Positions 858-63,997 of a stretch of 64,000 bases of DNA are shown one piece after another. The position numbers and the translations under genes were made by a program. Numbering within the stretch: position 1 is the stretch's first letter; every line of letters starts with the position of its first letter. The DNA is from Candidatus Parcubacteria bacterium. Lineage in GTDB: Bacteria > Patescibacteriota > Saccharimonadia > UBA4664 > JBIOIQ01. A model generated the notes under the pieces. It had not been told where the DNA came from, ran no database searches, and saw only the letters and a list, made by a program, of their open reading frames with translations. Where the stretch lies: positions 947,691 through 1,011,690 of the forward strand of contig OY970378.1 in assembly GCA_963718875.1 (NCBI GenBank), given 5' to 3'.

Positions 858-1358
858 TTATTTAACGACAAAGTTGACTAGTTTGCGCGGGACGGTAATA
901 GTTTTGACCATTGTTTTACCATCAAGATGCTTTTTGACAGACTCAACCTCCGCAGCGGACTTTTCCAACTCATCCTTGCCCACGTCTACGGCCGCTAGCA
1001 TAGTGCCGCGCAGCTTGCCATTGACCTGGATGGCAATCTCAATGATGTCGTCTTTAATTAACTCTGGATCATATTTGGGCCATGCAGCCACATGTACGCT
1101 CTCGGTTTCGCCCAATGCTTCTTGCCACAGCTCTTCGGCTAAGTGCGGCATGGCTGGAGCTAACATGAGGACTAATGTACGCACAGTTCGTTGCGCCAAT
1201 AAAGCGGCCTCAGGTTGCAAAAGTGATTTACGTATATCCGGCGCGTTCAAGAAGTTTACATATTCCATCAAGCTACTGACCATAGTATTAAAGTGCATAT
1301 CTTGAATATCTTCGTGGACTTTTTTCAAAGTTTTGTGAGTCATACGATCTACTGCCAC
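858..1358 (-). CDS. leuS: Leucyl-tRNA synthetase C-terminal fragment (anticodon-binding and C-terminal domain), separated from the main ORF by a frameshift
   Basis: Ends ...IQVNGKLRG...VPRKLVNFVVK, as bacterial LeuRS C-termini do; starts 2 nt away from the stop of the 840-aa LeuRS ORF but in a different frame. Confidence 0.8.
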   Translation of the reverse strand: MAVDRMTHKTLKKVHEDIQDMHFNTMVSSLMEYVNFLNAPDIRKSLLQPEAALLAQRTVRTLVLMLAPAMPHLAEELWQEALGETESVHVAAWPKYDPELIKDDIIEIAIQVNGKLRGTMLAAVDVGKDELEKSAAEVESVKKHLDGKTMVKTITVPRKLVNFVVK

Positions 1359-1359
1359 C

Positions 1360-3882
1360 TCAATGACCCCCTCGTTCCCACTTGGATTGCGAGGGAGCCT
1401 TGGTTTGGGAGTTTTGAATTAACTTATGCGCCAAGTCCCAAGTACGGTACGTAAAACGCCCTACGCCAGCTAAATGTTCCTCACTCCAGGCCATTTCTTG
1501 ATCATATGGTCCCATAAACATCTCGTACAATCGAAGTATATCTGCTCCATGCGTCGTGATTACGCCGTCTGGATTAATAACATTGCCGCGAGATTTGCTC
1601 ATCTTTTGATTGTCCGGCCCTAAAATCATGCCATGGCTTCGTCTCTTGGCATAAGGCTCGAGAGAGGGCACGAGTTTTTGATCATATAAAAATTTGTGCC
1701 AAAAGCGTGAATACAACAAATGAAGTGTCGTATGCTCCATTCCGCCGTTATAGAGATCAACCATCAACCAGTCTTGTAATTTGGACGTTGAAGCAAAAAC
1801 TTGATCATTGTTGGGGTCAATGTAGCGCAAATAGTACCAGCTAGAGCCAGCCCAGTTGGGCATGGTGTCTGTTTCTCGCTTAGCCGGACCATCACATTGA
1901 GGGCAAACCGTATTAACCCAATCGGTAATTGCCGCCAAGGGGCTTTCACCTGTTTTGGTGGGTTCATAATGTTCAACTTCAGGCAAAGTAAGAGGTAGTT
2001 GATCTTCCGGCACCGGCACGACTCCACACTTGGGACAATGAACCACCGGGATAGGTTCGCCCCAGTAATGCTGGCGACTAAAAATCCAATCGCGCAGTTT
2101 GTACTTGACTGCGTGTTTTGCGGACCCCGCTTTAAACAAATCTTCCACTATGGCTTGCTTTGCTTCGGATCCTAATAAACCGTCGTATTGGCCGGAATTA
2201 ATCAGTTCTCCTTCATCCGTAAGTGCGGTTTCTTTCCATAATTGCTGCCAGACAAATTTTTGGTGGTCAGGTACAAGCCTATCTAAAACTGCTTTTTGTT
2301 CGACCCAAACTAGAGTATGTTGCTTGGATTCGGCGTTGGGAATATTGCCTTGCTGGCTTAGATTGTCAACCTCGGCCATGATCACCATAGTAATGGCCTT
2401 GCGGTTTTGCTGCTTATGCGAGGCGCAGTAACGCGCTCCGGTAACCCAACGTAACTTGCGAACAATATTTATGTCCTGTAAGGCCGCTTCTTCGCGGATC
2501 TCATTTAAGGCGGCAGTTTCAGGTGTTTGCCCGTCTTCAATCCCTCCCATGATGGCAGTAGTTATGCCCTCAAGAGTACCGTGCCAATCAAGCAGGGCAA
2601 ATTTACCAGTGGACTTATCTTTAAGATGGACGATTACCGTGTCCCGAACGACTTCTTCGTACCTGGGTTGAGGTGGATTTTTGGTATCGTCCTCAATAGG
2701 CATGATTACCTGCTTAATTGGTAGGTCAAATTTTTTGGCAAACTCAAAGTCACGCTCATCGTGGGCAGGGACAGCCATAATGGCGCCCGTACCGTAACCC
2801 ATTAAAACGTAGTCGGCGATCCAAACTGGAAGTTCCTCTTTGGTAAGAGGGTTGATCGCCATTGCTCCGGTCCAGACGCCAGTTTTGGGCCGCTCCTGGT
2901 CTTGCCGCATTAACTCTGTCTCGGACTGGACGGTTTTGATATAGCTTTCAGTAACTGATTTTTGACCAGAGGTTGTGATGTCTTTTACTAGTGGATGTTC
3001 AGGCGCCAAGACTAAAAATGTAGCTCCGGCCAATGTGTCGGCACGAGTGGTGAAAACTTCAATATAAGAATTGTCATCCTGAACTCGATTCAGGATCTCT
3101 TGACTTAGTTTAAGAGATTCCGAATCCTGAGCGCTCGCATGGGCATGGTTCGTGCTCGCTTCCGGTCCGGAATGACAGATTGGAAATTTAACCGTCGCCC
3201 CCTCACTTCGACCGATCCAGTTAATTTGTTGCGTGGCCACACGAGGCAAGTAATCGACCGTTTTTAAGTCTTCAATCAGTCTATCAGCATAGGCTGTGAT
3301 TTTGAGTAACCATTGTTTGAGTAATTTTTTTTCGACTTCTGTGCCACAGCGCTCATGACGACCATTAATAACCTCTTCGTTGGCCAACCCAGTCTTACAA
3401 AATGGGCACCAATTAATGGCAATCTCGGCTTGGTAAGCAAGCCCGGCTTTAAGAAGTTGTAAAAAAATCCACTGGGTCCACTTGTAGTACTTAGGGTCAG
3501 TGGTATTAACCTCGCGCGACCAGTCGAAGCTTAGGCCCAAGCTTTTCATTTGGCGACGGAACGTGTCGACATTACGTTCGGTAGCGAGATGAGGGGCAAT
3601 CTTGTTTTTGATTGCATAGTTTTCTGTGGGCAATCCAAAAGCATCCCAGCCCATAGGATAGAGCACATTGAAACCTTGCATACGCTTGTGTCTGGCCATA
3701 ATATCCAGGGCAGTAAAGCTGCGGACATGTCCTACATGCAGCCCATCTCCCGAGGGATAAGGAAATTCTGCCAACAGGTAATATTTGGGCTTAGGATCAA
3801 AATCGACCGCTTGATAAAGCTTAGTGTCCGTCCAAACTTTTTGCCATTTGGGCTCAATTTTGCCTGGTTCGTATGGTTTCAT
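1360..3882 (-). CDS. leuS: Leucyl-tRNA synthetase main body (HVGH ... KMSKS) with an embedded Nudix/MutT-like domain and a repeat-derived insertion
   Basis: HVGHVRS and KMSKSRGN class-I motifs; CP1/editing region (TTRADTLAGATF, AVPAHDERDFEFAKKF); Nudix box GGIEDGQTPETAALNEIREEAAL at about aa 446-468. Confidence 0.9.
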   Translation of the reverse strand: MKPYEPGKIEPKWQKVWTDTKLYQAVDFDPKPKYYLLAEFPYPSGDGLHVGHVRSFTALDIMARHKRMQGFNVLYPMGWDAFGLPTENYAIKNKIAPHLATERNVDTFRRQMKSLGLSFDWSREVNTTDPKYYKWTQWIFLQLLKAGLAYQAEIAINWCPFCKTGLANEEVINGRHERCGTEVEKKLLKQWLLKITAYADRLIEDLKTVDYLPRVATQQINWIGRSEGATVKFPICHSGPEASTNHAHASAQDSESLKLSQEILNRVQDDNSYIEVFTTRADTLAGATFLVLAPEHPLVKDITTSGQKSVTESYIKTVQSETELMRQDQERPKTGVWTGAMAINPLTKEELPVWIADYVLMGYGTGAIMAVPAHDERDFEFAKKFDLPIKQVIMPIEDDTKNPPQPRYEEVVRDTVIVHLKDKSTGKFALLDWHGTLEGITTAIMGGIEDGQTPETAALNEIREEAALQDINIVRKLRWVTGARYCASHKQQNRKAITMVIMAEVDNLSQQGNIPNAESKQHTLVWVEQKAVLDRLVPDHQKFVWQQLWKETALTDEGELINSGQYDGLLGSEAKQAIVEDLFKAGSAKHAVKYKLRDWIFSRQHYWGEPIPVVHCPKCGVVPVPEDQLPLTLPEVEHYEPTKTGESPLAAITDWVNTVCPQCDGPAKRETDTMPNWAGSSWYYLRYIDPNNDQVFASTSKLQDWLMVDLYNGGMEHTTLHLLYSRFWHKFLYDQKLVPSLEPYAKRRSHGMILGPDNQKMSKSRGNVINPDGVITTHGADILRLYEMFMGPYDQEMAWSEEHLAGVGRFTYRTWDLAHKLIQNSQTKAPSQSKWERGGH
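3066..3176. repeat. Family-B/D-like palindromic element inserted in-frame inside leuS
   Basis: ttgtcatcctgaa..ttcaggatc followed by agattccgaatcctgagcgctcgc...cgcttccggtccggaatgac; compare the intergenic B copies ggattccctatccggagcgc...ccgatagggaatgac. It encodes the low-complexity LeuRS segment CHSGPEASTNHAHASAQDSESLKLSQEILNRVQDDNS. Confidence 0.6.
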
Positions 3883-7144: not shown

Positions 7145-7597
7145 ATGAGCCGCTTTACGAGACTCCTGAACCTCTACATCATCGTTGTTGGAGCGCTGGC
7201 CGGCCTGTGGCTTCTCTCCGTTATATCCATTGGACTGGGGAGAGGATCTGTCTTCAATACTCGATACGTGATGCTCTGCATTGCAAGCGTAGGTGTACTG
7301 GCCGTCATGGTTCTTGTAACAATCCTGTTGCTGGTAGATGACTGGGATAGCTCACTAATGCTCGCCCGAGTAGTCCCGGCTCACATTGTTGGTGGATCTG
7401 TGGCCTTGGGCTTTGCCTTTCATGTCACGCCAACAACTGGAATGGCGGCGCCTGCCTTAAACTGGCTGGTGGCAGTAATGTTCTACCTCTTGGCCGCGGC
7501 CGCTTGCATATCGATCACCTTGCAGCTCTATCTTGCTTCGCCCGTAAGTAACAAACGCCCACCAAAGGACTCCGGCAAGATCTTGAAGGCGCTGTAG
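7145..7597 (+). CDS. Hypothetical multi-pass membrane protein; GC about 55%
   Basis: Four predicted hydrophobic helices; the stop overlaps the start of the next ORF. Confidence 0.45.
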   Translation: MSRFTRLLNLYIIVVGALAGLWLLSVISIGLGRGSVFNTRYVMLCIASVGVLAVMVLVTILLLVDDWDSSLMLARVVPAHIVGGSVALGFAFHVTPTTGMAAPALNWLVAVMFYLLAAAACISITLQLYLASPVSNKRPPKDSGKILKAL

Positions 7598-12306: not shown

Positions 12307-12382
<76 letters not shown>

Positions 12383-14509: not shown

Positions 14510-14585
14510 TGGTGGAGCTGGGGAGATTCGAACTCCCTACCTCTGCAATGCGAATGCAGCGCTCTACCAAGTGAGCTACAGCCCC
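14510..14585 (-). tRNA. tRNA-Ala (anticodon CGC), CCA encoded
   Basis: Reverse complement is GGGGCTGTAGCTCACTTGGTAGAGCGCTGCATTCGCATTGCAGAGGTAGGGAGTTCGAATCTCCCCAGCTCCACCA; G3:U70 pair. Confidence 0.9.
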
Positions 14586-27421: not shown

Positions 27422-28234
27422 GTGTCTAAATCAGCCCCTGACGATGACGGCCCTTCCGAGGGCTATCAGGCTGTAATACCTTTCGAAGAAGCGCGCCTGG
27501 TTGCCGCCGCCAAGGCGGGAGATTCCAACGCACTTACAGCATTGGTTGAAGCTACCCAAGCCGATGTCTACACTTTGGCTTACCGCATTGTTGGTAACGA
27601 AGATGATGCCCGTGACGTAGTGCAGGAGGCGTACCTTCGAGCATTCCGATCGCTCAGGCGGTTCCGTGGTGACGCCAGATTCTCAACCTGGATGTTTCGT
27701 ATCACCGCTAACTGCGCCGCTACGCATTTGACGGGGCGATCAAAGTTTCGACATGAAGAGCTCGGTGACGATGACAACGTGCTGGACGAGAGGCCAGAAT
27801 CCGATCCTGAGGCTATGGCCGAAGCAGGGGCTCTGAGGGACAAAGTAACGGCCGCGTTGGCTAGTCTTCCTCCCAAATTAAGAGCCGTAGTAGTGCTGCG
27901 AGATGTTTACGACCTGCCCCACGATGTCATTGCAAGCGAATTGGGTATTACGGAGTCCGCGGCCAAGGTACGCTTGCATCGCGCCCGACGGAAGCTCCGG
28001 GAGAGGCTTTTCCCGGTCCCCCAGGTTGACCACCCTACCTATGATCATCAAGCAGCTATGGAAAAGCCCACTCTGCCGGAAGTCATACAAATGAGACAAC
28101 GAGGTCTCACCTTTCGACAGATTGGTGACATCCTGAGTGTATCCGCGGGTGCCGCCCAAAAAAGACACAAGCGAGCAGAAGAGCTATTGGCCCCGGAGAA
28201 TGGCTCGCATGAGCCCACGGCAATGGAGGGGTGA
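27422..28234 (+). CDS. ECF-type sigma-70 family factor with an additional C-terminal HTH-containing extension; GC about 57%
   Basis: Region 2 (DARDVVQEAYLRAFRSL) and region 4 (VVVLRDVYDLPHDVIASELGITESAAKVRLHRARRKLRE); a second HTH-like RGLTFRQIGDILSVSAGAAQKRHKRA lies in the last 70 aa. Confidence 0.75.
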   Translation: MSKSAPDDDGPSEGYQAVIPFEEARLVAAAKAGDSNALTALVEATQADVYTLAYRIVGNEDDARDVVQEAYLRAFRSLRRFRGDARFSTWMFRITANCAATHLTGRSKFRHEELGDDDNVLDERPESDPEAMAEAGALRDKVTAALASLPPKLRAVVVLRDVYDLPHDVIASELGITESAAKVRLHRARRKLRERLFPVPQVDHPTYDHQAAMEKPTLPEVIQMRQRGLTFRQIGDILSVSAGAAQKRHKRAEELLAPENGSHEPTAMEG

Positions 28235-30633: not shown

Positions 30634-31275
30634 TTGTTTCTCAACCCAGGAGGACTGGCAGAAATGGCTCAGTCACAGGTAACGTCCCAACCCGAAGTAG
30701 ACAGAGGTTTGTGGACCGTACCTAACGCGATCTCCATCCTCCGTCCGATCGCCATCATCCCGGCTCTCATCAAACTGTCGGACTCGATAGACCGCCCAAC
30801 CAGGGCCTGGTGGTCGTTTGTGATTGCCGGTATCATACTGGGTCTTGACGTTGTGGACGGGTGGATCGCTCGTCACTACCACCAAACCAGCCGAATCGGA
30901 AAGCTGATTGACCCAACCGCCGATAAACTTGTCGGCTTCACCTGCCTTGGATTCATGCTGGTAGTTCTCAGCAACAAAGCTGGAACTGGATTTTTCGCTG
31001 CCCTCTTGGGCATCGTAGCCATTCGGCTGGTGCAGGATCTCGTTTCGTTTTTCCTATACGTGCGGGACTGGAAGGCGAACCAAGTCAAGGGATCGAATTT
31101 CCCCGGGAAGGTCAAGACTTGGGCCGAACTGATCGGATCTGCGCTGGGACTCGCCTGGCTGATGAGTAAGGGCTCGGAGCAGGCCAACATCAGCGCGCTG
31201 CTCGTGATAATAGGCTGCTCTATCTCGGCTGGGGCCGCGACAATCAGCCTACGTCGCAAGTTGACTTCGCGTTAG
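30634..31275 (+). CDS. CDP-alcohol phosphatidyltransferase (PgsA-like); GC about 56%
   Basis: DVVDGWIARHYHQTSRIGKLIDPTADK matches D-G-x2-A-R-x8-G-x3-D-x3-D. Confidence 0.75.
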   Translation: MFLNPGGLAEMAQSQVTSQPEVDRGLWTVPNAISILRPIAIIPALIKLSDSIDRPTRAWWSFVIAGIILGLDVVDGWIARHYHQTSRIGKLIDPTADKLVGFTCLGFMLVVLSNKAGTGFFAALLGIVAIRLVQDLVSFFLYVRDWKANQVKGSNFPGKVKTWAELIGSALGLAWLMSKGSEQANISALLVIIGCSISAGAATISLRRKLTSR

Positions 31276-32926: not shown

Positions 32927-34906
32927 TTACTCGAGTACAGCTTTGATTCTCCGGATACCGGCCGATGAGGCTTCTTCTTTGGTAATTTTGAATTTACCCA
33001 AAGTTCCGGTGTGCTCCACATGCGGCCCCCCGCAGATTTCCTGACTGTACCACTCCCCGACTGGATCGCCAGCAGTGTAAACTTTGACTGTGTCGCCGTA
33101 TTTATGGCCGAATGCCCCCAAGACCCCTCGTTTTAGTGCACCTTGTGTGTCTTCTTCCCTCCAACTCATTGGCCAGTCTTTGGCGATGTTTTCGTTGACG
33201 ATGCGCTCGATTTCTTTGATTTGCTCTGGAGTAACTTTTTCGGGATGGCTAAAATCAAAGCGCAAGCGCTCGGGAGTAATATTGCTACCGCGCTGAGTAA
33301 CGTGATCGCCCAGGACGAGACGCAGGGCTTTGTACATTAGGTGGGTGGCGGTGTGGTATTTGGTGCTCATCTCGCTGTGATCAGCCAAGCCGCCTTTAAA
33401 CTGGCCTTGAGTGGCGGTGCGAGAGCGTTCCTTTTGCTCGGCCATCAATTTATCGAAGTCCGCTTTCCAATTTGGATCAATTTCAACCTTTAAACGATCC
33501 GCTTCTTCAAGGCTCAACTCAAAAGGAAACCCGTAAGTGTCGAATAATTCGAATATAACTTTGCCTGTTATTTTATTGCCTGAGCCTTGCCTGCCGGCAG
33601 GCAGGCTTGTCGAAGGCTCTAAATCGGCGGCGCCCTTCGACTCCGTTATCACTTTGCTCAGGGAATATTTTGGACCCCCGGAGACACGGCGTTCGAATTC
33701 TCTAATCCCCTTCTCCAGCGTTGTGCGAAACTGAGTCTCCTCGCGCATCAGCACATCCATGACTTCGTTCTCGCGTTCTTTGACTTCCGGGTAGGCTTCG
33801 CGATAAATACCGGTGATGACGGGGACGATTTGGTCCATAAAGTCTTCGCGCAGATCTAAGACAAGAGCTTGACGGATGGCGCGGCGAATAAAGCGGCGCA
33901 TCACATATCCCTGAGCAGTGTTGGATGGTACGACTCCGTCGACGGCCAGGAAAGTAGCGGCGCGAAGGTGGTCGGCAATAATACGCATGGCGTTGGTCTG
34001 GTCGGCGTAATCAAAACCGGACAACTCCTGAAGTTTTTCGATGATGGGCCAAAGGACACTAATTTTAAACATATCGGGAGAATTGATGGCTGCGGCGGCG
34101 ATGCGCTCTAACCCGCCACCAAAATCTACGTTTTGACGAGGCAATTCATAGATTCCGCCGTCTTCGCTTTTAAGATATTGCATAAAGACCGAGTTACCGA
34201 TTTCCATGAAACGCCCGCAATCACAGTTAGGATGACAATGCTTGCCCCATTTAGAATCGTGCTCTACTTCATCGAATAGATAGAAAACTTCCGCGCAAGG
34301 ACCGCACGGATCGCCTACTGGCGTGGTTTCAGGACCTTTTTCACCGCGATTCCACCAGTTCTTCTTGGCCTCGTATAAAAAAATGCGCTCGCCATCTTTA
34401 ACGCCGCGCTCATAGCCGTCACCTTCTGATCCGATTTCAGCCACTTGCGGCTCTATGCCCTTCACTTTGTATAGTTTTTTCCAAATTTCAACTGACTCGG
34501 TATCTTGGGGGATATTGTATTTTTTATCACCGATGAAGGCTGTTACATAAAGCTTCTCCGGATTAAGCCCGATCGTATCAGTCAGGAACTCCCAAAACCA
34601 TGGTAACTCCTCGTCTTTAAAATATTCACCAAGACTCCAGTTACCTAGCATTTCGAACAAAGTAGTGTGTCGATTGTCCCCTACTTCGTCAATATCTTCA
34701 GCCCGAAAACAAGGTTGAGAATCAACTAACCTTGTACCCTGAGGATGTTTCTCACCCAGCAGATATGGCACAAGCGGCTGCATGCCTGAACCGGTAAAAA
34801 GAGTGGTGGCGTCTTCGGCCGGCACCAAGTTAGACCGCGGGATAATGGTGTGTCCGCGGTCGGTGAAAAACTGTAAAAATTTGGAACGAATTTCCTCGGT
34901 AGTCAT
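32927..34906 (-). CDS. alaS: Alanyl-tRNA synthetase, short form (659 aa; catalytic, tRNA-recognition and editing domains, no C-Ala/DHHA1 tail), with an in-frame family-C insertion
   Basis: Class-II AlaRS N-terminus (FTGSGMQP..., RAEDIDEVGDNRHTTLFEMLGNWS), editing HxxxH...CGGPH; ends directly after the editing domain. Confidence 0.9.
   Translation of the reverse strand: MTTEEIRSKFLQFFTDRGHTIIPRSNLVPAEDATTLFTGSGMQPLVPYLLGEKHPQGTRLVDSQPCFRAEDIDEVGDNRHTTLFEMLGNWSLGEYFKDEELPWFWEFLTDTIGLNPEKLYVTAFIGDKKYNIPQDTESVEIWKKLYKVKGIEPQVAEIGSEGDGYERGVKDGERIFLYEAKKNWWNRGEKGPETTPVGDPCGPCAEVFYLFDEVEHDSKWGKHCHPNCDCGRFMEIGNSVFMQYLKSEDGGIYELPRQNVDFGGGLERIAAAAINSPDMFKISVLWPIIEKLQELSGFDYADQTNAMRIIADHLRAATFLAVDGVVPSNTAQGYVMRRFIRRAIRQALVLDLREDFMDQIVPVITGIYREAYPEVKERENEVMDVLMREETQFRTTLEKGIREFERRVSGGPKYSLSKVITESKGAADLEPSTSLPAGRQGSGNKITGKVIFELFDTYGFPFELSLEEADRLKVEIDPNWKADFDKLMAEQKERSRTATQGQFKGGLADHSEMSTKYHTATHLMYKALRLVLGDHVTQRGSNITPERLRFDFSHPEKVTPEQIKEIERIVNENIAKDWPMSWREEDTQGALKRGVLGAFGHKYGDTVKVYTAGDPVGEWYSQEICGGPHVEHTGTLGKFKITKEEASSAGIRRIKAVLE
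33580..33650. repeat. Family-C palindromic element inserted in-frame in alaS
   Basis: cctgagccttgcctgccggcaggcaggcttgtcgaaggctc...gcccttcgactccg; encodes the extra AlaRS segment ...SKGAADLEPSTSLPAGRQGSG... Confidence 0.65.
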
Positions 34907-41451: not shown

Positions 41452-41540
41452 TTTTTATTTCTCCAATTTTTATTTTTCATTTATGCCCTTTGCCGTCCCG
41501 GACCGTCAGCAGACGGTTGAGCCGGGTTCCACCAACAGCC

Positions 41541-56828: not shown

Positions 56829-57251
56829 TCAGCTGAAGATGAGGGGCGAGATGGCCCAGAAGAAGGTGATGGTGCCGAGCATGGTGAAGATGATGACACC
56901 CCAGATGGTCCTCCAGCTGTCGTCCTTGGTGAAGAGGCGTGCGTGGAGGTAGACGCCCATGGTCGCGAACGCGACCAGGGCCTGAACCGCGTCGTAGGGG
57001 TGGGACGATCCGAGCTGGTCGCTCATGATCCGCGATGCGATCAGGATCGCGTTGACCGCGATCAGCGTGGCACGAACCGACCTTGATGCACGAATGTCCT
57101 GGTCGGCTTCTTGAGTGGGCGAAAGCATCATGACGCATCCTCCTTGGGGAGCGTAGAGTTTGATCAGGTTTTCGATGAACACGAACGACAACAGGCTGTT
57201 TTCCTCCATTCCGTTTTGAATCAGGACAGTCAACCCGTAGAGTGTCATCAT
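56829..57251 (-). CDS. Hypothetical small membrane protein in a roughly 65% GC islet (probable true start at the internal Met near 57135)
   Basis: Three hydrophobic helices; GC drops sharply upstream of about 57135; divergent from and abutting the IS30 transposase start. Confidence 0.35.
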   Translation of the reverse strand: MMTLYGLTVLIQNGMEENSLLSFVFIENLIKLYAPQGGCVMMLSPTQEADQDIRASRSVRATLIAVNAILIASRIMSDQLGSSHPYDAVQALVAFATMGVYLHARLFTKDDSWRTIWGVIIFTMLGTITFFWAISPLIFS

Positions 57252-58229
57252 GGTAAAAGCTACTAAACTAACATCGGCAGAGCGTTCGGAAATAGAAATT
57301 CTTTTAAATAAAGGTCACACTCTTAGGGCCATTGGTCGGGCTTTGGGCCGGAGCCCCAATACCATCAGTGATGAGGTGAAGCGTAATAAGACCCCGGAAG
57401 GCTACAATGCCCGCATCGCCAAACAAAAAGCCTACGTCAAACGCAAGTATGCCAAGTACCAGGGCAAGAAGATCCAGGAGAATGATGATTTGCGCTGGTA
57501 CATCATTGTGCGCCTCATGGATGGCTGGAATCCCGATGAGATAGCGGGACGACTAAAAAAAGATCAGCACGGTTACTATGCCTCTAAGACAGCCATCTAC
57601 GAATGGCTCGACAGCGCCAGAGGGCAGAAGTACTGTGACTACCTGCCCTCCCGTAGGTACAGACCAAAGAAGCGCAAACCAAAGACCGATCGGGTGATGA
57701 TTCCAGATCGGGTGAGTATTACAGAGCGCCCCCATGAAGCTACCGTCCGGAGCGAAGTGGGCCACTATGAGGGGGATACCATCGTTAGCGGCAAGCGGAC
57801 TGGATCAAAAGCAGCAATCGTAGTGATTCAGGAACGAGTCACCAGACTGATTGCTGCTAGACCCATCCCAGACTTGTGTCCGGTGAGCTTTAATGGAGCC
57901 ATCAGCTCTTCCAAACTGGTCTTGCTCTCATCAGCAGTCTGACTCTCGACAACGGTATCGAGAACCGTTGGCACAGATTGCTCGATATGCTCGTTTTTTT
58001 CTGTGACCCCTATTCTAGCTGGCAAAAAGGAGGGGTGGAAAACGCCAACCGAATGATTCGGCACTACTTGCCCAAAGGCATGGATCTAGCCACCGTGACG
58101 AACAAAGAATTGCAGCGTATCATTACGATCATAAACAACAAACCCAGGAAGATCCTGGGATATATGTCCGCTATTGAAATGGCTAAAGAGAAAGGAGTTT
58201 TACGAGAGACTGTCCTGATTGAGGGGTGA
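57250..58229 (+). mobile_element. Degenerate IS30-family transposase gene, internally deleted and split into two ORFs (57250..57942 and 57978..58229)
   Basis: N-terminal HTH (LLNKGHTLRAIGRALGRSPNTISDEV), first DDE aspartate region HYEGDTIV, then a C-terminal FFCDPYSSWQKGGVENANRMIRHYLPKG; the central roughly 100 aa carrying the second Asp are missing. Confidence 0.7.
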
Positions 58230-60721: not shown

Positions 60722-60800
60722 CCTACTAAAATACGACGACCCAGCAAATGCGCTGGATCGTCGCATCTGCTGGGTCATTAATTTTTGAGCTTACAGCCGG

Positions 60801-61829
60801 TTATACTCCGGCTGGCTCCATGTCTCGGCTGTAGCTGCCGGTGGCGGCGGCTGCGGCGCAGGCTGCGCGGTGGGAGGCCACCTTCTGGGCCTCGGCGACG
60901 TTCTCGCTCGAGCCCTTCCAGGCCTTCAGCGCCCCGTCCTGCAGCGCCCGGCCATATGAGAAGGTCAGCACCCAGGGGTGGGGGCCCGCCTTGTTCATGA
61001 GGTCGAGGTGCTCGGTGGCCACTGCGGCTGACTGCCCGCCGGACAGGAAGGCGATGCCGGGTACCGCGGCGGGCACGGTGCGGTAGAGGAGATCGAGGGT
61101 GCGGTTGGCCACCTCCTGTGCGCTGGCCTGCACGTCGCACTCCTTGCCCGAGATGACCATGTTGGGCTTGAGAACCATGCACCGCAGATCCACCTGCTGC
61201 CGGTGCAGCTCCTGGAAAACCCTGCGATGGGCGCGCAGAGTGGCTTGGTAACAGGCGTCGATGTTGTGCTCGCCGTCCATCACCACCTCGGGCTCGATGA
61301 CCGGCACCAAGCCACCCTCCTGGCAGAGGGCGCCGTAGCGGGCCAGGGCGTGGGCGTTGCAATGGAGGGCGTAGTCGGACGGGTACCCCAGGAGTTCGTC
61401 GATGATGAACACGGCCCGCCACTTGGCGAACTTGGCGCCCAGGCTGACGAACTCCTCGATGCGCTCGCGGAGTCCGTCGAGGCCCTCGGTGACCTGCTCG
61501 TCGTTGTCGAGCGCAAGCGGCTTGGAGCCCGTGTCGACCTTGATCCCCGGCAGGATGTGCTTGGCCTCCAGCAGCTTCGGGAAGGGGGTGCCGTCAGCGG
61601 AGCTCTGCCGGATAGTCTCTTCGTAGAGGATGACGCCACTGATATACTCCTCGAGGCCCGGAATGCTCAGTAGGGTGTCGCGGTAGGCGCGGCGGTTTTC
61701 CTCAGTGGAATCGATGTCGAGCGCCCCGAAGCGCTTGGTGATGGTGGCGTTGCTCTCGTCGGCCGCTAGAACTCCTCGGCCGTGGGCGACCATGGCTTGG
61801 GCCACTGCAGCCAAATCGGTTACAGACAT
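60801..61829 (-). CDS. fba: Fructose-bisphosphate aldolase, class I, in a roughly 65% GC segment
   Basis: GVLAADESNATITKRF...EENRRAYRDTLL...ISGVILYEETI are class-I FBA hallmarks; GC is far above the neighbouring pyk. Confidence 0.85.
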   Translation of the reverse strand: MSVTDLAAVAQAMVAHGRGVLAADESNATITKRFGALDIDSTEENRRAYRDTLLSIPGLEEYISGVILYEETIRQSSADGTPFPKLLEAKHILPGIKVDTGSKPLALDNDEQVTEGLDGLRERIEEFVSLGAKFAKWRAVFIIDELLGYPSDYALHCNAHALARYGALCQEGGLVPVIEPEVVMDGEHNIDACYQATLRAHRRVFQELHRQQVDLRCMVLKPNMVISGKECDVQASAQEVANRTLDLLYRTVPAAVPGIAFLSGGQSAAVATEHLDLMNKAGPHPWVLTFSYGRALQDGALKAWKGSSENVAEAQKVASHRAACAAAAATGSYSRDMEPAGV

Positions 61830-62006
61830 TCATACCGCCTTCTGTTCGTTGGAAGCCGATGATCTCGGCCGTTATATTATAGGCTTTAGGGCTTGTTTGA
61901 GGCAATCAAAAGCGTTTTGGCATTACCGTGGGAGCACTTGGTTTTATTGACTTAATAAAGCCTCTGATTTAGAGTTGGCCATACGTTGCATTCTACCGAG
62001 TGAGAG

Positions 62007-62888
62007 GTGGTTAAGATGGACAACGATACGCTTAGAGGCCTCATGCCTTACGGACCCCAATTTCTCCTGATCGACCAAGTGGTCAGCTGGCAACCCGGTG
62101 TTTCGGCTAGGGGTACTTACATGACCGACCCTGATCGGGAGCTAGCGGTAGCCGATCATTTCCCGGATGCGATCTATTGGCCAGGCGTATATAGCGTCGC
62201 CGGGTTGGCAGAGCTGGCCTGGAAGCTTGTCCAGCATCAAGCGCCCGGCATTTTTTGGCGACTAAGCCGACTAGTCGAGGCAAAGTTTTTGCGGCCTGGC
62301 CAGGTCGGCGACCTGCTCGCGATGGACTGTCAGATTGAACGACCCACTGAGCCTCAGCGTGATGGGGTTGTCCAGGTGCGCTGCACAAGCAAGCTTGGTG
62401 CGGGCAAGCGATGCTGCACTGCCATATTGCAGTTCGAGGCCTGTACAGAGGTTGACCCGCGCCGCTTGCGAGCGGCACCTGCTTCCGGTCGTACCGGCTA
62501 TGTCCTGCTTGATTCGCCGCCGATCGTGTCCAATGACGGACTAATCATGACTTCGCAATACCAGATCACCGGACAAGAAACGTTTAGCCTGGCATCGCTT
62601 TTTGGCCACCCCTTGTGGTGGCTGGTACTGGGCGTGGAAACTCCTGCCCAGGCTGGTGTTGTAGCCCTGCGCTCCGATCCGCGCTTTGCTAGTAAGCGGA
62701 TCTTGTTCAGGGGCATCGAAAACGCTGTCTTTCACGCCCTTCCTCTAATTGGACATATGGTGGAGGCGTTGGCCGAACTTGATGCAATGACGGCCGAGGC
62801 AACCCGAGGAGGCGGAAGAGCCACTATGCGGATAGGCGGGGAGCTTTTTGCTGAATCGAGGATCATGTTCAGCTTTATCCCCATGTAG
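62007..62888 (+). CDS. Hotdog-fold (FabZ/FabA-like dehydratase) protein, probably a double hotdog; high-GC
   Basis: MPYGPQFLLIDQVV...ADHFPDAIYWPGVYSVAGLAELA resembles the FabZ N-terminal motif. Confidence 0.4.
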   Translation: MVKMDNDTLRGLMPYGPQFLLIDQVVSWQPGVSARGTYMTDPDRELAVADHFPDAIYWPGVYSVAGLAELAWKLVQHQAPGIFWRLSRLVEAKFLRPGQVGDLLAMDCQIERPTEPQRDGVVQVRCTSKLGAGKRCCTAILQFEACTEVDPRRLRAAPASGRTGYVLLDSPPIVSNDGLIMTSQYQITGQETFSLASLFGHPLWWLVLGVETPAQAGVVALRSDPRFASKRILFRGIENAVFHALPLIGHMVEALAELDAMTAEATRGGGRATMRIGGELFAESRIMFSFIPM

Positions 62889-62963
62889 GCTTGTTACTTC
62901 GGAGGGCGGGGAAGTGTTCCCGCCCTCCGACTACTTTCAACCGTTATTATAAATTGATTAAAA

Positions 62964-63010
62964 CACGAAAGCCGCCCAGCAGGACGATTTTCGCGTCCTA
63001 CTGAACGGCC
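62964..63010 (-). repeat. 3'-flanking hairpin element (copy 1), located immediately after the WhiB-like stop codon
   Basis: cacgaaagccgcccagcaggacgattttcgcgtcctactgaacggccgc; a second copy at 63684-63730 carries compensatory stem changes (ggacg/cgtcc to ggaca/tgtcc). Confidence 0.6.
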
Positions 63011-63663
63011 GCTTCCTCCAGATCAGTCCTTAACTGCCTAGCCAACCGGTTTGCTCGAGCTATGGTTCCGAATGAGTCACGGTATTGTTCTGCAGACCTG
63101 CAAAAGCCCTGGGCGTGGAGGCTGTCTAGACCCGGCGAGCCCACCGAACCGCCCACATAATCCTGAAGCGTTACTAAGTCGGCTAACAGACCTCGCTGCT
63201 CATCAGATACAGGCTCTGGCGCTTGAACAGGAGGGGGAGTTGATACAAGCGGAGCATCAGTTGTTACAACCACAGCTGCAGCAGGTTCCTTTGCCTCGTT
63301 CTTTCGCGGCCGGCCGCGGGGACGCTTGGTGGCTTGGACTTTGCCCTTGTAGAAATACCGGCCACCCCATACACCAGCAGGTTCACGACGGGCCAGTGCA
63401 TCTGTAAAACATGCTTCCTTTACAGGGCATTCTCCGCAAAAAGCTTTGGCGCGGGCGATGTCGTCCAGTTGTTCGGAAAAAAACAGGGCGACGAGGTGTC
63501 CCGTGCCGTCATTGCATCTGGCGTAACTCCATAGGTCAAGCTCTAGTTCTGTACTGTCGATTGCTGACGTAACTGGAATCACCCCCTCTACGATCTCAAG
63601 GAAACTGCTGACGTTACCATTATTGACCCTTGGACTTATATCGTCAATTAATTGAAAGTCCAT
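62998..63663 (-). CDS. WhiB-like (Wbl) Fe-S transcription factor with an AT-hook and long terminal extensions
   Basis: Four-Cys pattern ARC...AFCGECPVKEAC plus GVWGG; AT-hook KRPRGRPRK directly after it. Confidence 0.7.
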   Translation of the reverse strand: MDFQLIDDISPRVNNGNVSSFLEIVEGVIPVTSAIDSTELELDLWSYARCNDGTGHLVALFFSEQLDDIARAKAFCGECPVKEACFTDALARREPAGVWGGRYFYKGKVQATKRPRGRPRKNEAKEPAAAVVVTTDAPLVSTPPPVQAPEPVSDEQRGLLADLVTLQDYVGGSVGSPGLDSLHAQGFCRSAEQYRDSFGTIARANRLARQLRTDLEEAAVQ

Positions 63664-63683
63664 ACTTAAATTTAGTTTTAAAG

Positions 63684-63730
63684 CACGAAAGCCGCCCAGA
63701 TGGACAACTTACGTGTCCGACTGAACGGCG
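63684..63730 (-). repeat. 3'-flanking hairpin element (copy 2), immediately after the stop of the 63749.. ORF
   Basis: cacgaaagccgcccagatggacaacttacgtgtccgactgaacggcggg. Confidence 0.6.
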
Positions 63731-63748: not shown

Positions 63749-63997
63749 TTAACCAGGGCCGTCGACTACCGTGGCCCTAAGCGCTACATCGACGGCCAGA
63801 TGAGGTGTGGTCTTCTTCCCAGTTGTGAGAATAATGATTCCCGTATCCGGATGAAATTCGCCCACTTGACGCCTTCCTGTACCTGGGTAATCAACCCAGG
63901 CGCCGGGCTTAAGTTTTCTTTTCCTAAGTATAGCCTGAAGTCCATCCTGGATTTTCCCCTCAATGTCCTCAGCTGTGTCAGAGTCCTTAATTTTCAC
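63749..63997 (-). CDS. Hypothetical protein (partial at the window edge)
   Basis: ORF only. Confidence 0.3.
   Translation of the reverse strand: MKIKDSDTAEDIEGKIQDGLQAILRKRKLKPGAWVDYPGTGRRQVGEFHPDTGIIILTTGKKTTPHLAVDVALRATVVDGPG

Follow-up and report, generated by a model that had tools for sequence, protein, structure and literature searches.

According to the literature, WhiB-like (Wbl) proteins occur in Actinobacteria and actinophages alone (PMC6282962; PMC13013590). One of the closest described systems to the one discussed here is WhiB7 of Mycobacterium tuberculosis (WhiB7/WblC; Rv3197A; structures 7KIF, 7KUF and 7KUG), a protein of 92 amino acids (aa) whose published target is an AT-rich motif abutting the -35 element, and in which the glutamate of an EPW/EPY triplet is essential, its mutation abolishing SigA binding (both PMC3905903). 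Here we describe a WhiB7-type gene found near the end of a 64-kb stretch of contig OY970378.1 (the whole of which we call the window), and the window is part of a Saccharimonadia (TM7) chromosome. We consider it fairly probable that this gene is an old actinobacterial Wbl that has been domesticated and remodelled within TM7, and that a neighbouring gene for a class I fructose-bisphosphate aldolase (FBA) was imported separately and recently. A literature search combining WhiB with Saccharibacteria or Patescibacteria returned no report of a Wbl in Patescibacteria, but only host-gene papers and unrelated community surveys. The parts of the gene are as follows (ORF, open reading frame; nt, nucleotides; pLDDT, predicted local distance difference test).

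62998..63663, minus strand: Wbl ORF as annotated, 221 aa, matching PF02467; probable coding sequence 62998-63582 (GTG start, 194 aa)
63619..63680, minus strand: putative WhiB7-type promoter, with an 82% AT box (63680-63648), -35 TTGACG (63647-63642) and -10 AATAAT (63624-63619)
63361..63531, minus strand: predicted [4Fe-4S]/sigma-binding core of the Wbl, residues W45-G101 (PF02467 match at residues 47-101)
63301..63327, minus strand: AT-hook KRPRGRPRK, residues 113-121, aligning residue for residue with M. tuberculosis WhiB7
63208..63300, minus strand: Pro/Ala-rich low-complexity linker, residues 122-152 (pLDDT below 50 for residues 126-135)
63001..63207, minus strand: TM7-specific three-helix module, residues 153-221, related to one unit of PF18780 (HNH_repeat, 'homing endonuclease associated repeat')

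The Wbl domain matches PF02467 at 51 bits, against a gathering score of 23.6, over residues 47-101. Its cysteines are spaced C50-x25-C76-x2-C79-x5-C85, the last three of which pair with C43, C46 and C52 in the alignment to M. tuberculosis WhiB7, and the G97-V-W-G-G101 beta-turn is invariant or near-invariant in our alignment A1; the Wbl domain, Cys4 set and GVWGG signature claimed by an earlier reading of the letters alone (the original prediction) were thereby verified. That reading had also proposed a WhiB7-style AT-hook, and KRPRGRPRK at residues 113-121 does align with the hook of M. tuberculosis WhiB7, to which it is identical; in alignment A1, R116, R118 and P119 of the hook are at least 90% conserved and G117 is invariant. 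The best solved relative was also M. tuberculosis WhiB7 (7kif_Z, 56.4 bits), with the other paralogues scoring 27.4 (WhiB3), 25.2 (WhiB1) and 20.5 bits (WhiB4), and a Foldseek search with the AlphaFold2 (AF2) model of the Wbl placed WhiB7 at the top (7kuf_A, probability 0.99; 7kug was also a top match). The N-terminus is disordered over residues 1-33 in the predicted model.

For binding of sigma-A region 4 (sigma-A4), the published criterion is the presence of at least two of four aromatic-patch positions (AP1-4), including AP2 or AP3 (PMC13013590). Here F61-F62 (AP2-3) align with W28-F29 of WhiB7 and W99 is AP4, with W45 or Y47 as the candidate for AP1. Compared with WhiB7/WblC, then, the protein has the same Cys4 set, the same aromatic pair, the same Glu-Pro before the G[VI]WGG turn and the KRPRGRPRK hook at the same spacing, and an AT-rich box abutting the -35 of its own promoter is also alike. 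It differs in residing in a Saccharimonadia chromosome, in having EPA rather than EPW before the turn, in having no long leader, and in its length of 194-221 aa, which includes an extra Pro-rich linker and a three-helix module. Judged by its sequence, it is a genuine WhiB7-subfamily regulator.

The C-terminal region sets the TM7 protein apart from its homologues. All of the 48 high-GC homologues compared end 23-43 residues past GVWGG, whereas the two TM7 proteins (that of the window and an orthologue, P0002, discussed below) continue for 106-120 residues, an extension of some 70-85 residues past the homologue ends. The linker is only 23% identical to that of the TM7 orthologue, with a ratio of nonsynonymous to synonymous substitution rates (dN/dS) of about 0.77, and its evolution is nearly neutral. 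Beyond it, helices are predicted at residues 154-170, 182-198 and 201-220 (pLDDT 70-83). Neither Pfam nor NCBIfam assigns the tail, and a profile built from the two TM7 tails, searched against 1.84e9 representative proteins, gave three matches, two of which are multi-copy PF18780 proteins (library-wide E-values 1.9e-5 and 7.4e-4). Aligning the tail by hhalign with ten bona fide PF18780 repeat units gave 96.5% (E 8e-10, 52 of 58 columns), and a hidden Markov model (HMM) of the repeat gave the window tail 33.4 bits, while 500 shuffles reached 9.7 at most; the tail was its only match among the window ORFs (E 7.5e-9).

In PF18780 proteins the unit is repeated (four times in P0310; six times, together with a helicase, in P0311) and its aligned pattern is L..L...G..P......G.C.S...Y..FG(T/S)...A, whereas in both TM7 proteins it occurs once, is fused to a Wbl and lies under the reach of Pfam detection. 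The literature yielded a single incidental mention of the PF18780 repeat. The joining of Wbl, AT-hook and PF18780-like module is a new combination. As a separate observation, residues 1-25 of P0310 include an AT-hook-like KPGRPAKKK ahead of the four PF18780 repeats, so a pairing of AT-hook with HNH_repeat exists outside the TM7 Wbl.

The upstream region of the gene was likewise remodelled relative to high-GC relatives. The AT box of the putative promoter abuts the -35, the spacer to the -10 is 17 nt, and the element scores 10/12 in a promoter scan; it overlaps the first 15 annotated Wbl codons and aligns with the TTGACG-N18-CATAAT of the TM7 orthologue, where an AGGAGG follows upstream of the ATG. 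In 21 high-GC relatives an AT box with TTGACG (consensus AAATTCGG-TTGACG) lies at -348 to -467 from the first cysteine codon (Cys1), and in the TM7 Wbl genes at -115 to -131, giving a leader some 220-350 nt shorter in TM7. In actinobacteria, WhiB7 has a long 5′ leader with an upstream ORF/attenuator between promoter and coding region. An attenuator scan of the leader of one high-GC relative was uninformative, with no elements demonstrated there.

The Wbl gene is bracketed by two copies of a 52-nt repeat, beyond the second of which lies a further ORF.

62958..63009, minus strand: 52-nt repeat copy A, hairpin with U-tract, terminator-like (RNA fold -31.5 kcal/mol, z -5.8)
63678..63729, minus strand: 52-nt repeat copy B, terminator-like hairpin (RNA fold -24.3 kcal/mol, z -4.2)
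63749..63997, minus strand: ORF of 82 aa upstream of the Wbl, with host-like composition (GC3, the G+C content at third codon positions, 0.47) and no Pfam or NCBIfam match

The copies are 85% identical, with one compensatory stem change, and both carry U-tracts on the sense strand; copy A extends over the final four codons of the Wbl and its stop codon. A pattern search of the window found two matches, against 0.00 expected, and there was no other copy in the window, in the orthologue's locus or in the other retrieved loci. We considered the repeat as the boundary of a mobile cassette and rejected this, as it is absent at the orthologue's and all other loci; we read it as a duplicated terminator, in which copy A would be the intrinsic terminator of the Wbl gene and copy B would insulate the Wbl from the upstream ORF. 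The U-tract of copy B ends 14 nt before the annotated ATG (M1, 63663), which leaves no room for a promoter there, and the conserved promoter lies inside the ORF; the GTG at 63582 is therefore favoured, and the Wbl probably starts at that codon, giving a protein of 194 aa. The unusual length of 221 aa given in the original prediction thus belongs to the longest ORF, while the likely 194-aa product is still long for a Wbl because of the C-terminal extension of about 70-85 residues.

As to where such a gene came from, all 50 of the JGI metagenome loci carrying this Wbl subfamily have 65-74% GC and no TM7-like neighbours, core identity to these high-GC loci reaches 80-85%, and most of the named relatives, at 60-70% identity, belong to Acidimicrobiia/Acidimicrobiales. 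When 98 unique cores were placed in a neighbour-joining tree, the TM7 Wbls nested, on longer branches, within a 27-tip high-GC clade (bootstrap 73/100). Members of this WhiB7-like clade of about 70% GC (for example P0003-P0006 and L061-L080; C-terminus ...KNPRPE...LIA) have 74-85% core identity to the TM7 Wbls, the same AT-hook and the same AATTCGG-TTGACG promoter signature. They differ in ending 23-43 aa past GVWGG, in a GC3 of about 0.93 and in a promoter 348-467 nt from Cys1, and the TM7 Wbls stand apart from them by their long branches and added tail. The clade is probably related to Acidimicrobiia. The actinobacterial derivation that had been proposed for the regulator is upheld by this nesting and by its nearest named relatives.

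The same proposal had allowed for phage-mediated transfer, for which the databases offered nothing: this Wbl subfamily was found in no IMG/VR viral contig, and among the phages of INPHARED the best match is 54% over 63 aa. Plasmid matches reach 49-57% over at most 65 aa. We rejected a phage or plasmid as the vehicle, since these matches (49-57%) are distant compared with the 80-85% found in cellular high-GC contigs. Actinophage Wbls (for example that of Mycobacterium phage Shweta) do offer a parallel, as Wbls outside the actinobacterial chromosome in an exploiter of Actinobacteria, and binding to the same sigma-A4 site has been reported for them. They are only 54-57% identical over 42-63 aa, however, and are not of the WhiB7/AT-hook subtype found here; unlike them, the TM7 gene is chromosomal, ameliorated and without phage context.

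The Wbl has a second carrier in TM7. P0002, of 173 aa, is encoded on two Logan contigs (L057/L058), between genes for a methionyl-tRNA synthetase (MetRS) 85% identical to that of the window and a TatD 57% identical. In the window metG and tatD are adjacent, 89 nt apart (41452-41540). Three close relatives had no Wbl in their 22-kb loci; the gene is thus not widespread in TM7, as the original prediction needed it to be, one other carrier having been found in a word-indexed search that may miss divergent Wbls. A scan of species genomes with the Wbl gave no match. A further candidate, P0065 (222 aa), had been taken up as an orthologue from a sister genome and was rejected, its GGDEF/EAL and molybdopterin context being that of an unrelated organism.

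Between the window protein and P0002 the core has a dN of 0.13 at 85% aa identity, with synonymous sites saturated, and MetRS of the same two lineages has a dN of 0.11 at 85% identity. Core GC3 averages 0.93 in the donor clade and is 0.54 in the window Wbl and 0.75 in L058, where the genome background is 0.53-0.56 and the Wbl tail 0.54. The ameliorated GC3, the saturated dS and the MetRS-like dN together argue for an old transfer followed by purifying selection, and these same three observations speak against a recent transfer of the regulator. The history within TM7 is probably one of vertical descent with relocation.

It is also conceivable that the window genome and the L057/L058 genome acquired their Wbls separately, for example from each other or from a shared mobile element. 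The positions of the gene in the two genomes do differ, the metG-tatD junction is a variable insertion spot, the L058 core is well above its background in GC3 (0.75 against 0.53-0.56) while the window core is nearly ameliorated, and three close relatives lack the gene at their loci. We nevertheless regard separate acquisition as unlikely, because the shared TM7-specific tail, the position of the linker and the shortened leader speak for a single earlier domestication, the core has diverged just as much as MetRS, and neither site has mobile-element genes or flanks in common with the other. The metG-tatD junction itself is empty in the window and in L114 (at about 3905), holds the Wbl in L057 (1550-2212) and L058, and in L113 (1084-3940) holds a major facilitator superfamily (MFS) fragment with the trehalose-synthesis genes otsB and otsA; insertions seem to recur at this spot.

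The original prediction had conditioned its idea of transfer on a host of the candidate phyla radiation (CPR)/Saccharibacteria type, and the window provides one. The named relatives of its alanyl-tRNA synthetase (AlaRS, 32927-34906), at 64-70% identity, are all Candidatus Saccharimonadia/Saccharibacteria, and the gene order around alaS is also found in other TM7 contigs. Aminoacyl-tRNA synthetases, a Mur ligase, Ddl, Obg, GuaA, LysM-CHAP, tpiA, pgk and pyk are among the window genes, a content that is of the small, cell-wall-bearing epibiont type. A scan of the species genomes with the window's pyruvate kinase gave only homologues of at most 41% identity, so the genomes scanned include no close species representative.

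The Wbl had been presented as part of a high-GC block together with two neighbours, an FBA and a double-hotdog protein, and all three ORFs are present where that description placed them.

60801..61829, minus strand: class I fructose-bisphosphate aldolase, 342 aa (PF00274 E 6.6e-124; NF033379 480 bits, cutoff 250)
62007..62888, plus strand: tandem (double) FabZ-like hotdog protein, 293 aa (FabZ model NF000582 54 bits, cutoff 113)

They do not form a block. Measured against 39 window genes (mean GC3 0.475, standard deviation 0.054), GC3 is 0.866 in FBA (z +7.2), 0.609 in the hotdog gene (z +2.5, inside the spread of native syntenic genes) and 0.486 in the Wbl (z +0.2), and the step in GC falls sharply at the edges of the FBA coding sequence, where the homology of FBA to donor-type DNA also ends. 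A resident syntenic gene, for a CDP-alcohol phosphatidyltransferase (30634-31275, plus strand), has a GC3 of 0.66 and reaches z +3.4, so FBA is the only clear GC3 outlier of the three; elsewhere, an ORF of 150 aa at 7145-7597 (plus strand), with no Pfam match, has a GC3 of 0.61 (z +2.5), so that genes resident in the window can be moderate GC3 outliers. FBA, hotdog and Wbl have three different compositional histories and are not one island.

The identity of the aldolase claimed at the outset holds, since both PF00274 and NF033379 (480 bits against a cutoff of 250) recognise it as a class I FBA, the PF00274 match spanning 2-332 of 349 positions. Its best non-self homologues are 84-87% identical, and all of the named close ones, some of them encoded on contigs of 55-83 kb, come from Actinomycetota, Acidimicrobiales or Acidimicrobiia. 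With a gene in a contig of 70% GC it shares 82% nt identity over 1017 nt, confined to the coding sequence, and its GC3 of 0.87 is close to the 0.92 of an 85%-identical donor-type gene. We considered whether FBA might be a mosaic and rejected this, the donor-like identity being uniform along the whole protein. Like the class I FBAs of Acidimicrobiales metagenome-assembled genomes (for example P0194, from a Calvin-Benson-Bassham (CBB)/carboxysome cluster), it has 342 aa and a very high GC3; it differs in its setting, for the TM7 gene adjoins the native glycolytic genes pyk, pgk and tpiA within AT-rich, host-like intergenic DNA, and the donor-type gene lies beside cbbR, RuBisCO, PRK and RPE. We take FBA to be a recent whole-gene import from Acidimicrobiales-like Actinomycetota, independent of the Wbl. 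The 85%-identical donor-type FBA was seen beside cbbR, the large and small RuBisCO subunits, CsoS2, CsoSCA, EutN/CcmL, RPE and PRK (L111 1-13400; L112), a cluster of Calvin-cycle and alpha-carboxysome genes, and the source of the imported aldolase is therefore probably a paralogue associated with the CBB cycle.

These data also bear on two other explanations. The first is that a single recent actinobacterial island, or a phage-borne cassette, brought FBA, hotdog and Wbl together, and in its favour the three genes are neighbours, GC is elevated across 60.8-63.4 kb, an IS30-like gene lies 2.6 kb away and the Wbl is bracketed by the 52-nt direct repeat. Yet an island is at odds with GC3 values of 0.87, 0.61 and 0.49 in the three genes, with donor homology that stops at the ends of the FBA coding sequence and gives way to host-like intergenic DNA, with donor-type FBA contigs that carry neither Wbl nor hotdog gene, and with a TM7 Wbl orthologue that lies elsewhere in its genome without FBA or hotdog beside it; a cassette is at odds with viral contigs that lack this Wbl subfamily (best phage match 54% over 63 aa) and with plasmid matches of only 49-57%. 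Composition and synteny already contradict this explanation, and we hold it to be extremely unlikely.

The second is an artefact, in which chimeric assembly or contamination joined actinobacterial DNA to a TM7 contig. The assembly may contain indel errors, as both the IS30-like gene and, after a G5 run, a leucyl-tRNA synthetase (LeuRS) gene are split; but DNA of host composition lies on both flanks of FBA within the window, so a chimera would require two precise joins, exactly at the ends of the FBA coding sequence. The codon composition of the Wbl is host-like, moreover, and two independent Logan assemblies also have the Wbl, between metG and tatD of TM7. The probability left to an artefact is almost negligible, and we proceed with an old, domesticated Wbl and a separate, recent FBA.

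We propose that the Wbl came from a high-GC actinobacterium, most likely an Acidimicrobiia-like one, into a common ancestor of two or more TM7 lineages, and that the gene would have been kept under purifying selection since. The four cysteines would hold a [4Fe-4S] cluster, and the cluster pocket, the aromatic patch (W45, F61, F62, W99) and E94 would dock on a primary sigma factor, presumably that of the TM7 cell itself, at its region 4, while the AT-hook would enter the AT-rich minor groove just upstream of the -35 of its targets, including its own promoter. The outcome could be a redox-sensitive, autoregulated activation. In this account domestication took three forms: drift of synonymous composition towards that of the host; loss of about 220-350 nt of upstream leader; and fusion to the C-terminus of a Pro-rich linker and one PF18780-like three-helix unit. 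The tail is probably a second DNA-contact or partner-contact module. As the two transfers, of Wbl and FBA, are of different age and point to the same actinobacterial class, they suggest that Acidimicrobiia-like bacteria may be the hosts or long-term neighbours of this epibiont.

A different role can be imagined for the same protein, namely that of a host-directed effector, delivered to or acting on an actinobacterial host, where it would hijack sigma-A region 4 rather than regulate TM7 genes. Actinophage Wbls are thought to hijack the host sigma-A, and the TM7 protein has the sigma-A4-binding determinants of actinobacterial Wbls. Outside TM7, the family is known only from Actinobacteria and their phages, the Wbl core is unusually conserved, and cultured Saccharibacteria live as epibionts on Actinobacteria. 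In its strongest form the Wbl might be a weapon, a captured host regulator with an added DNA-binding module, used in trans to reprogramme the host RNA polymerase, which we consider very improbable. Delivery to a host in general seems to us similarly doubtful, with the odds strongly against it: the N-terminus shows neither an evident signal peptide nor another feature linked to secretion, the neighbouring genes are not secretion genes, and an autoregulatory-type promoter is retained in TM7-like DNA, which implies that the Wbl acts on TM7 RNA polymerase. Were the weapon reading true, the two Acidimicrobiia-derived genes would mark Acidimicrobiia as a new host class for Saccharimonadia; the cultured hosts known so far all belong to the class Actinomycetes.

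Several observations weigh against a domesticated WhiB7-type regulator as we have set it out. In the protein core, the TM7 orthologue has AP2-4 without an aromatic at the AP1 position, and the triplet before the turn, which is EPY in the nearest high-GC clade, is E94-P95-A96 in the window Wbl and EPN in the orthologue, so that Glu and Pro are retained and the aromatic is lost in both TM7 Wbls. In the tail, the Pfam PF18780 model does not match either TM7 protein at E <= 10, and the top match of the tail-profile search was an unrelated Ig-repeat protein, P0309; we rejected P0309 as spurious, an all-beta protein whose score was summed over seven near-identical repeats. The GTG start and the promoter are consensus-based, with the Shine-Dalgarno-like GAGGGG only 0-2 nt from the GTG, and the AT-box/-35 motif is not enriched in the window (2 occurrences against 0.8 expected), so no regulon is visible there. 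In the tree, the TM7 pair has a bootstrap of 25/100 on 77 columns, and the monophyly of the pair is argued chiefly from the tail and promoter that they have in common; the donor clade of about 70% GC itself carries no taxonomic label.

With these points in the balance, an ameliorated and selectively maintained chromosomal gene of WhiB7 type in two Saccharimonadia lineages breaks the phylum boundary within which Wbls have been placed, and implies that the mechanism by which Wbls work through sigma region 4 may operate, or be re-targeted, outside Actinobacteria. Two novelties, the architecture and a long leader that has been lost in nature, are relevant to the control of WhiB7. Ultra-small epibionts have very few known regulators, and a TM7 Wbl would be a concrete one to study; the two Acidimicrobiia-like transfers, for their part, offer a clue from genomes as to which host an uncultured soil/environmental TM7 lineage has.

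The hotdog gene lies between FBA and the Wbl. The double-hotdog assignment made in the original prediction is sound, as each half alone matches the FabZ model NF000582 (N-half, 35 bits; C-half, 23 bits, E 5.5e-5), and the N-half also matches a FabZ structure (6n3p, E 6.6e-7). We rejected the protein as a FabZ, since its scores (54 bits for the whole) are far below the cutoff of 113 bits and since the N-half, though it has the His of the HFP motif, carries Ala at the position of the catalytic Glu; by sequence it is a divergent tandem hotdog protein. It had no Pfam match, BLASTP of the N-half against the C-half found no match, and its single-sequence AF2 model was unusable (pLDDT 33). The hotdog start is probably the ATG at 62016, with a GAGAGG 8 nt upstream, rather than the GTG at 62007. 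Past its stop, between the convergent hotdog and Wbl genes, is a perfect GC-rich hairpin (CGGAGGGCGGG...CCCGCCCTCCG; 62901-62930).

No primary sigma-70 gene is present in the window or in the retrieved loci of relatives. The window does contain a gene for a sigma factor of the extracytoplasmic function (ECF) type (Sigma70_r2 and r4_2, 270 aa; 27422-28234, plus strand), of mildly raised GC (0.56) and syntenic in the TM7 relatives L113 and L114. LeuRS is encoded in two ORFs (858-3882, minus strand), one for the catalytic and editing domains (1360-3882) and one for the anticodon-binding domain (858-1358), with the frame change directly after the G5 run, and residues 442-544 of LeuRS include a NUDIX-like stretch (28.5 bits); the break is either a true split/insertion or a long-read indel error. 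The IS30-family transposase is likewise in two ORFs on the plus strand (HTH_38, 57250-57942; C-terminal piece, 57978-58229), between pgk and pyk and 2.6 kb from the imported FBA, and may be a pseudogene or frameshifted. As both splits could be assembly indels, ORF ends call for caution. Two tRNA-Ala genes (anticodons GGC and CGC; 12307-12382 and 14510-14585, minus strand) lie 2 kb apart, and no other RNA genes were detected in the window.

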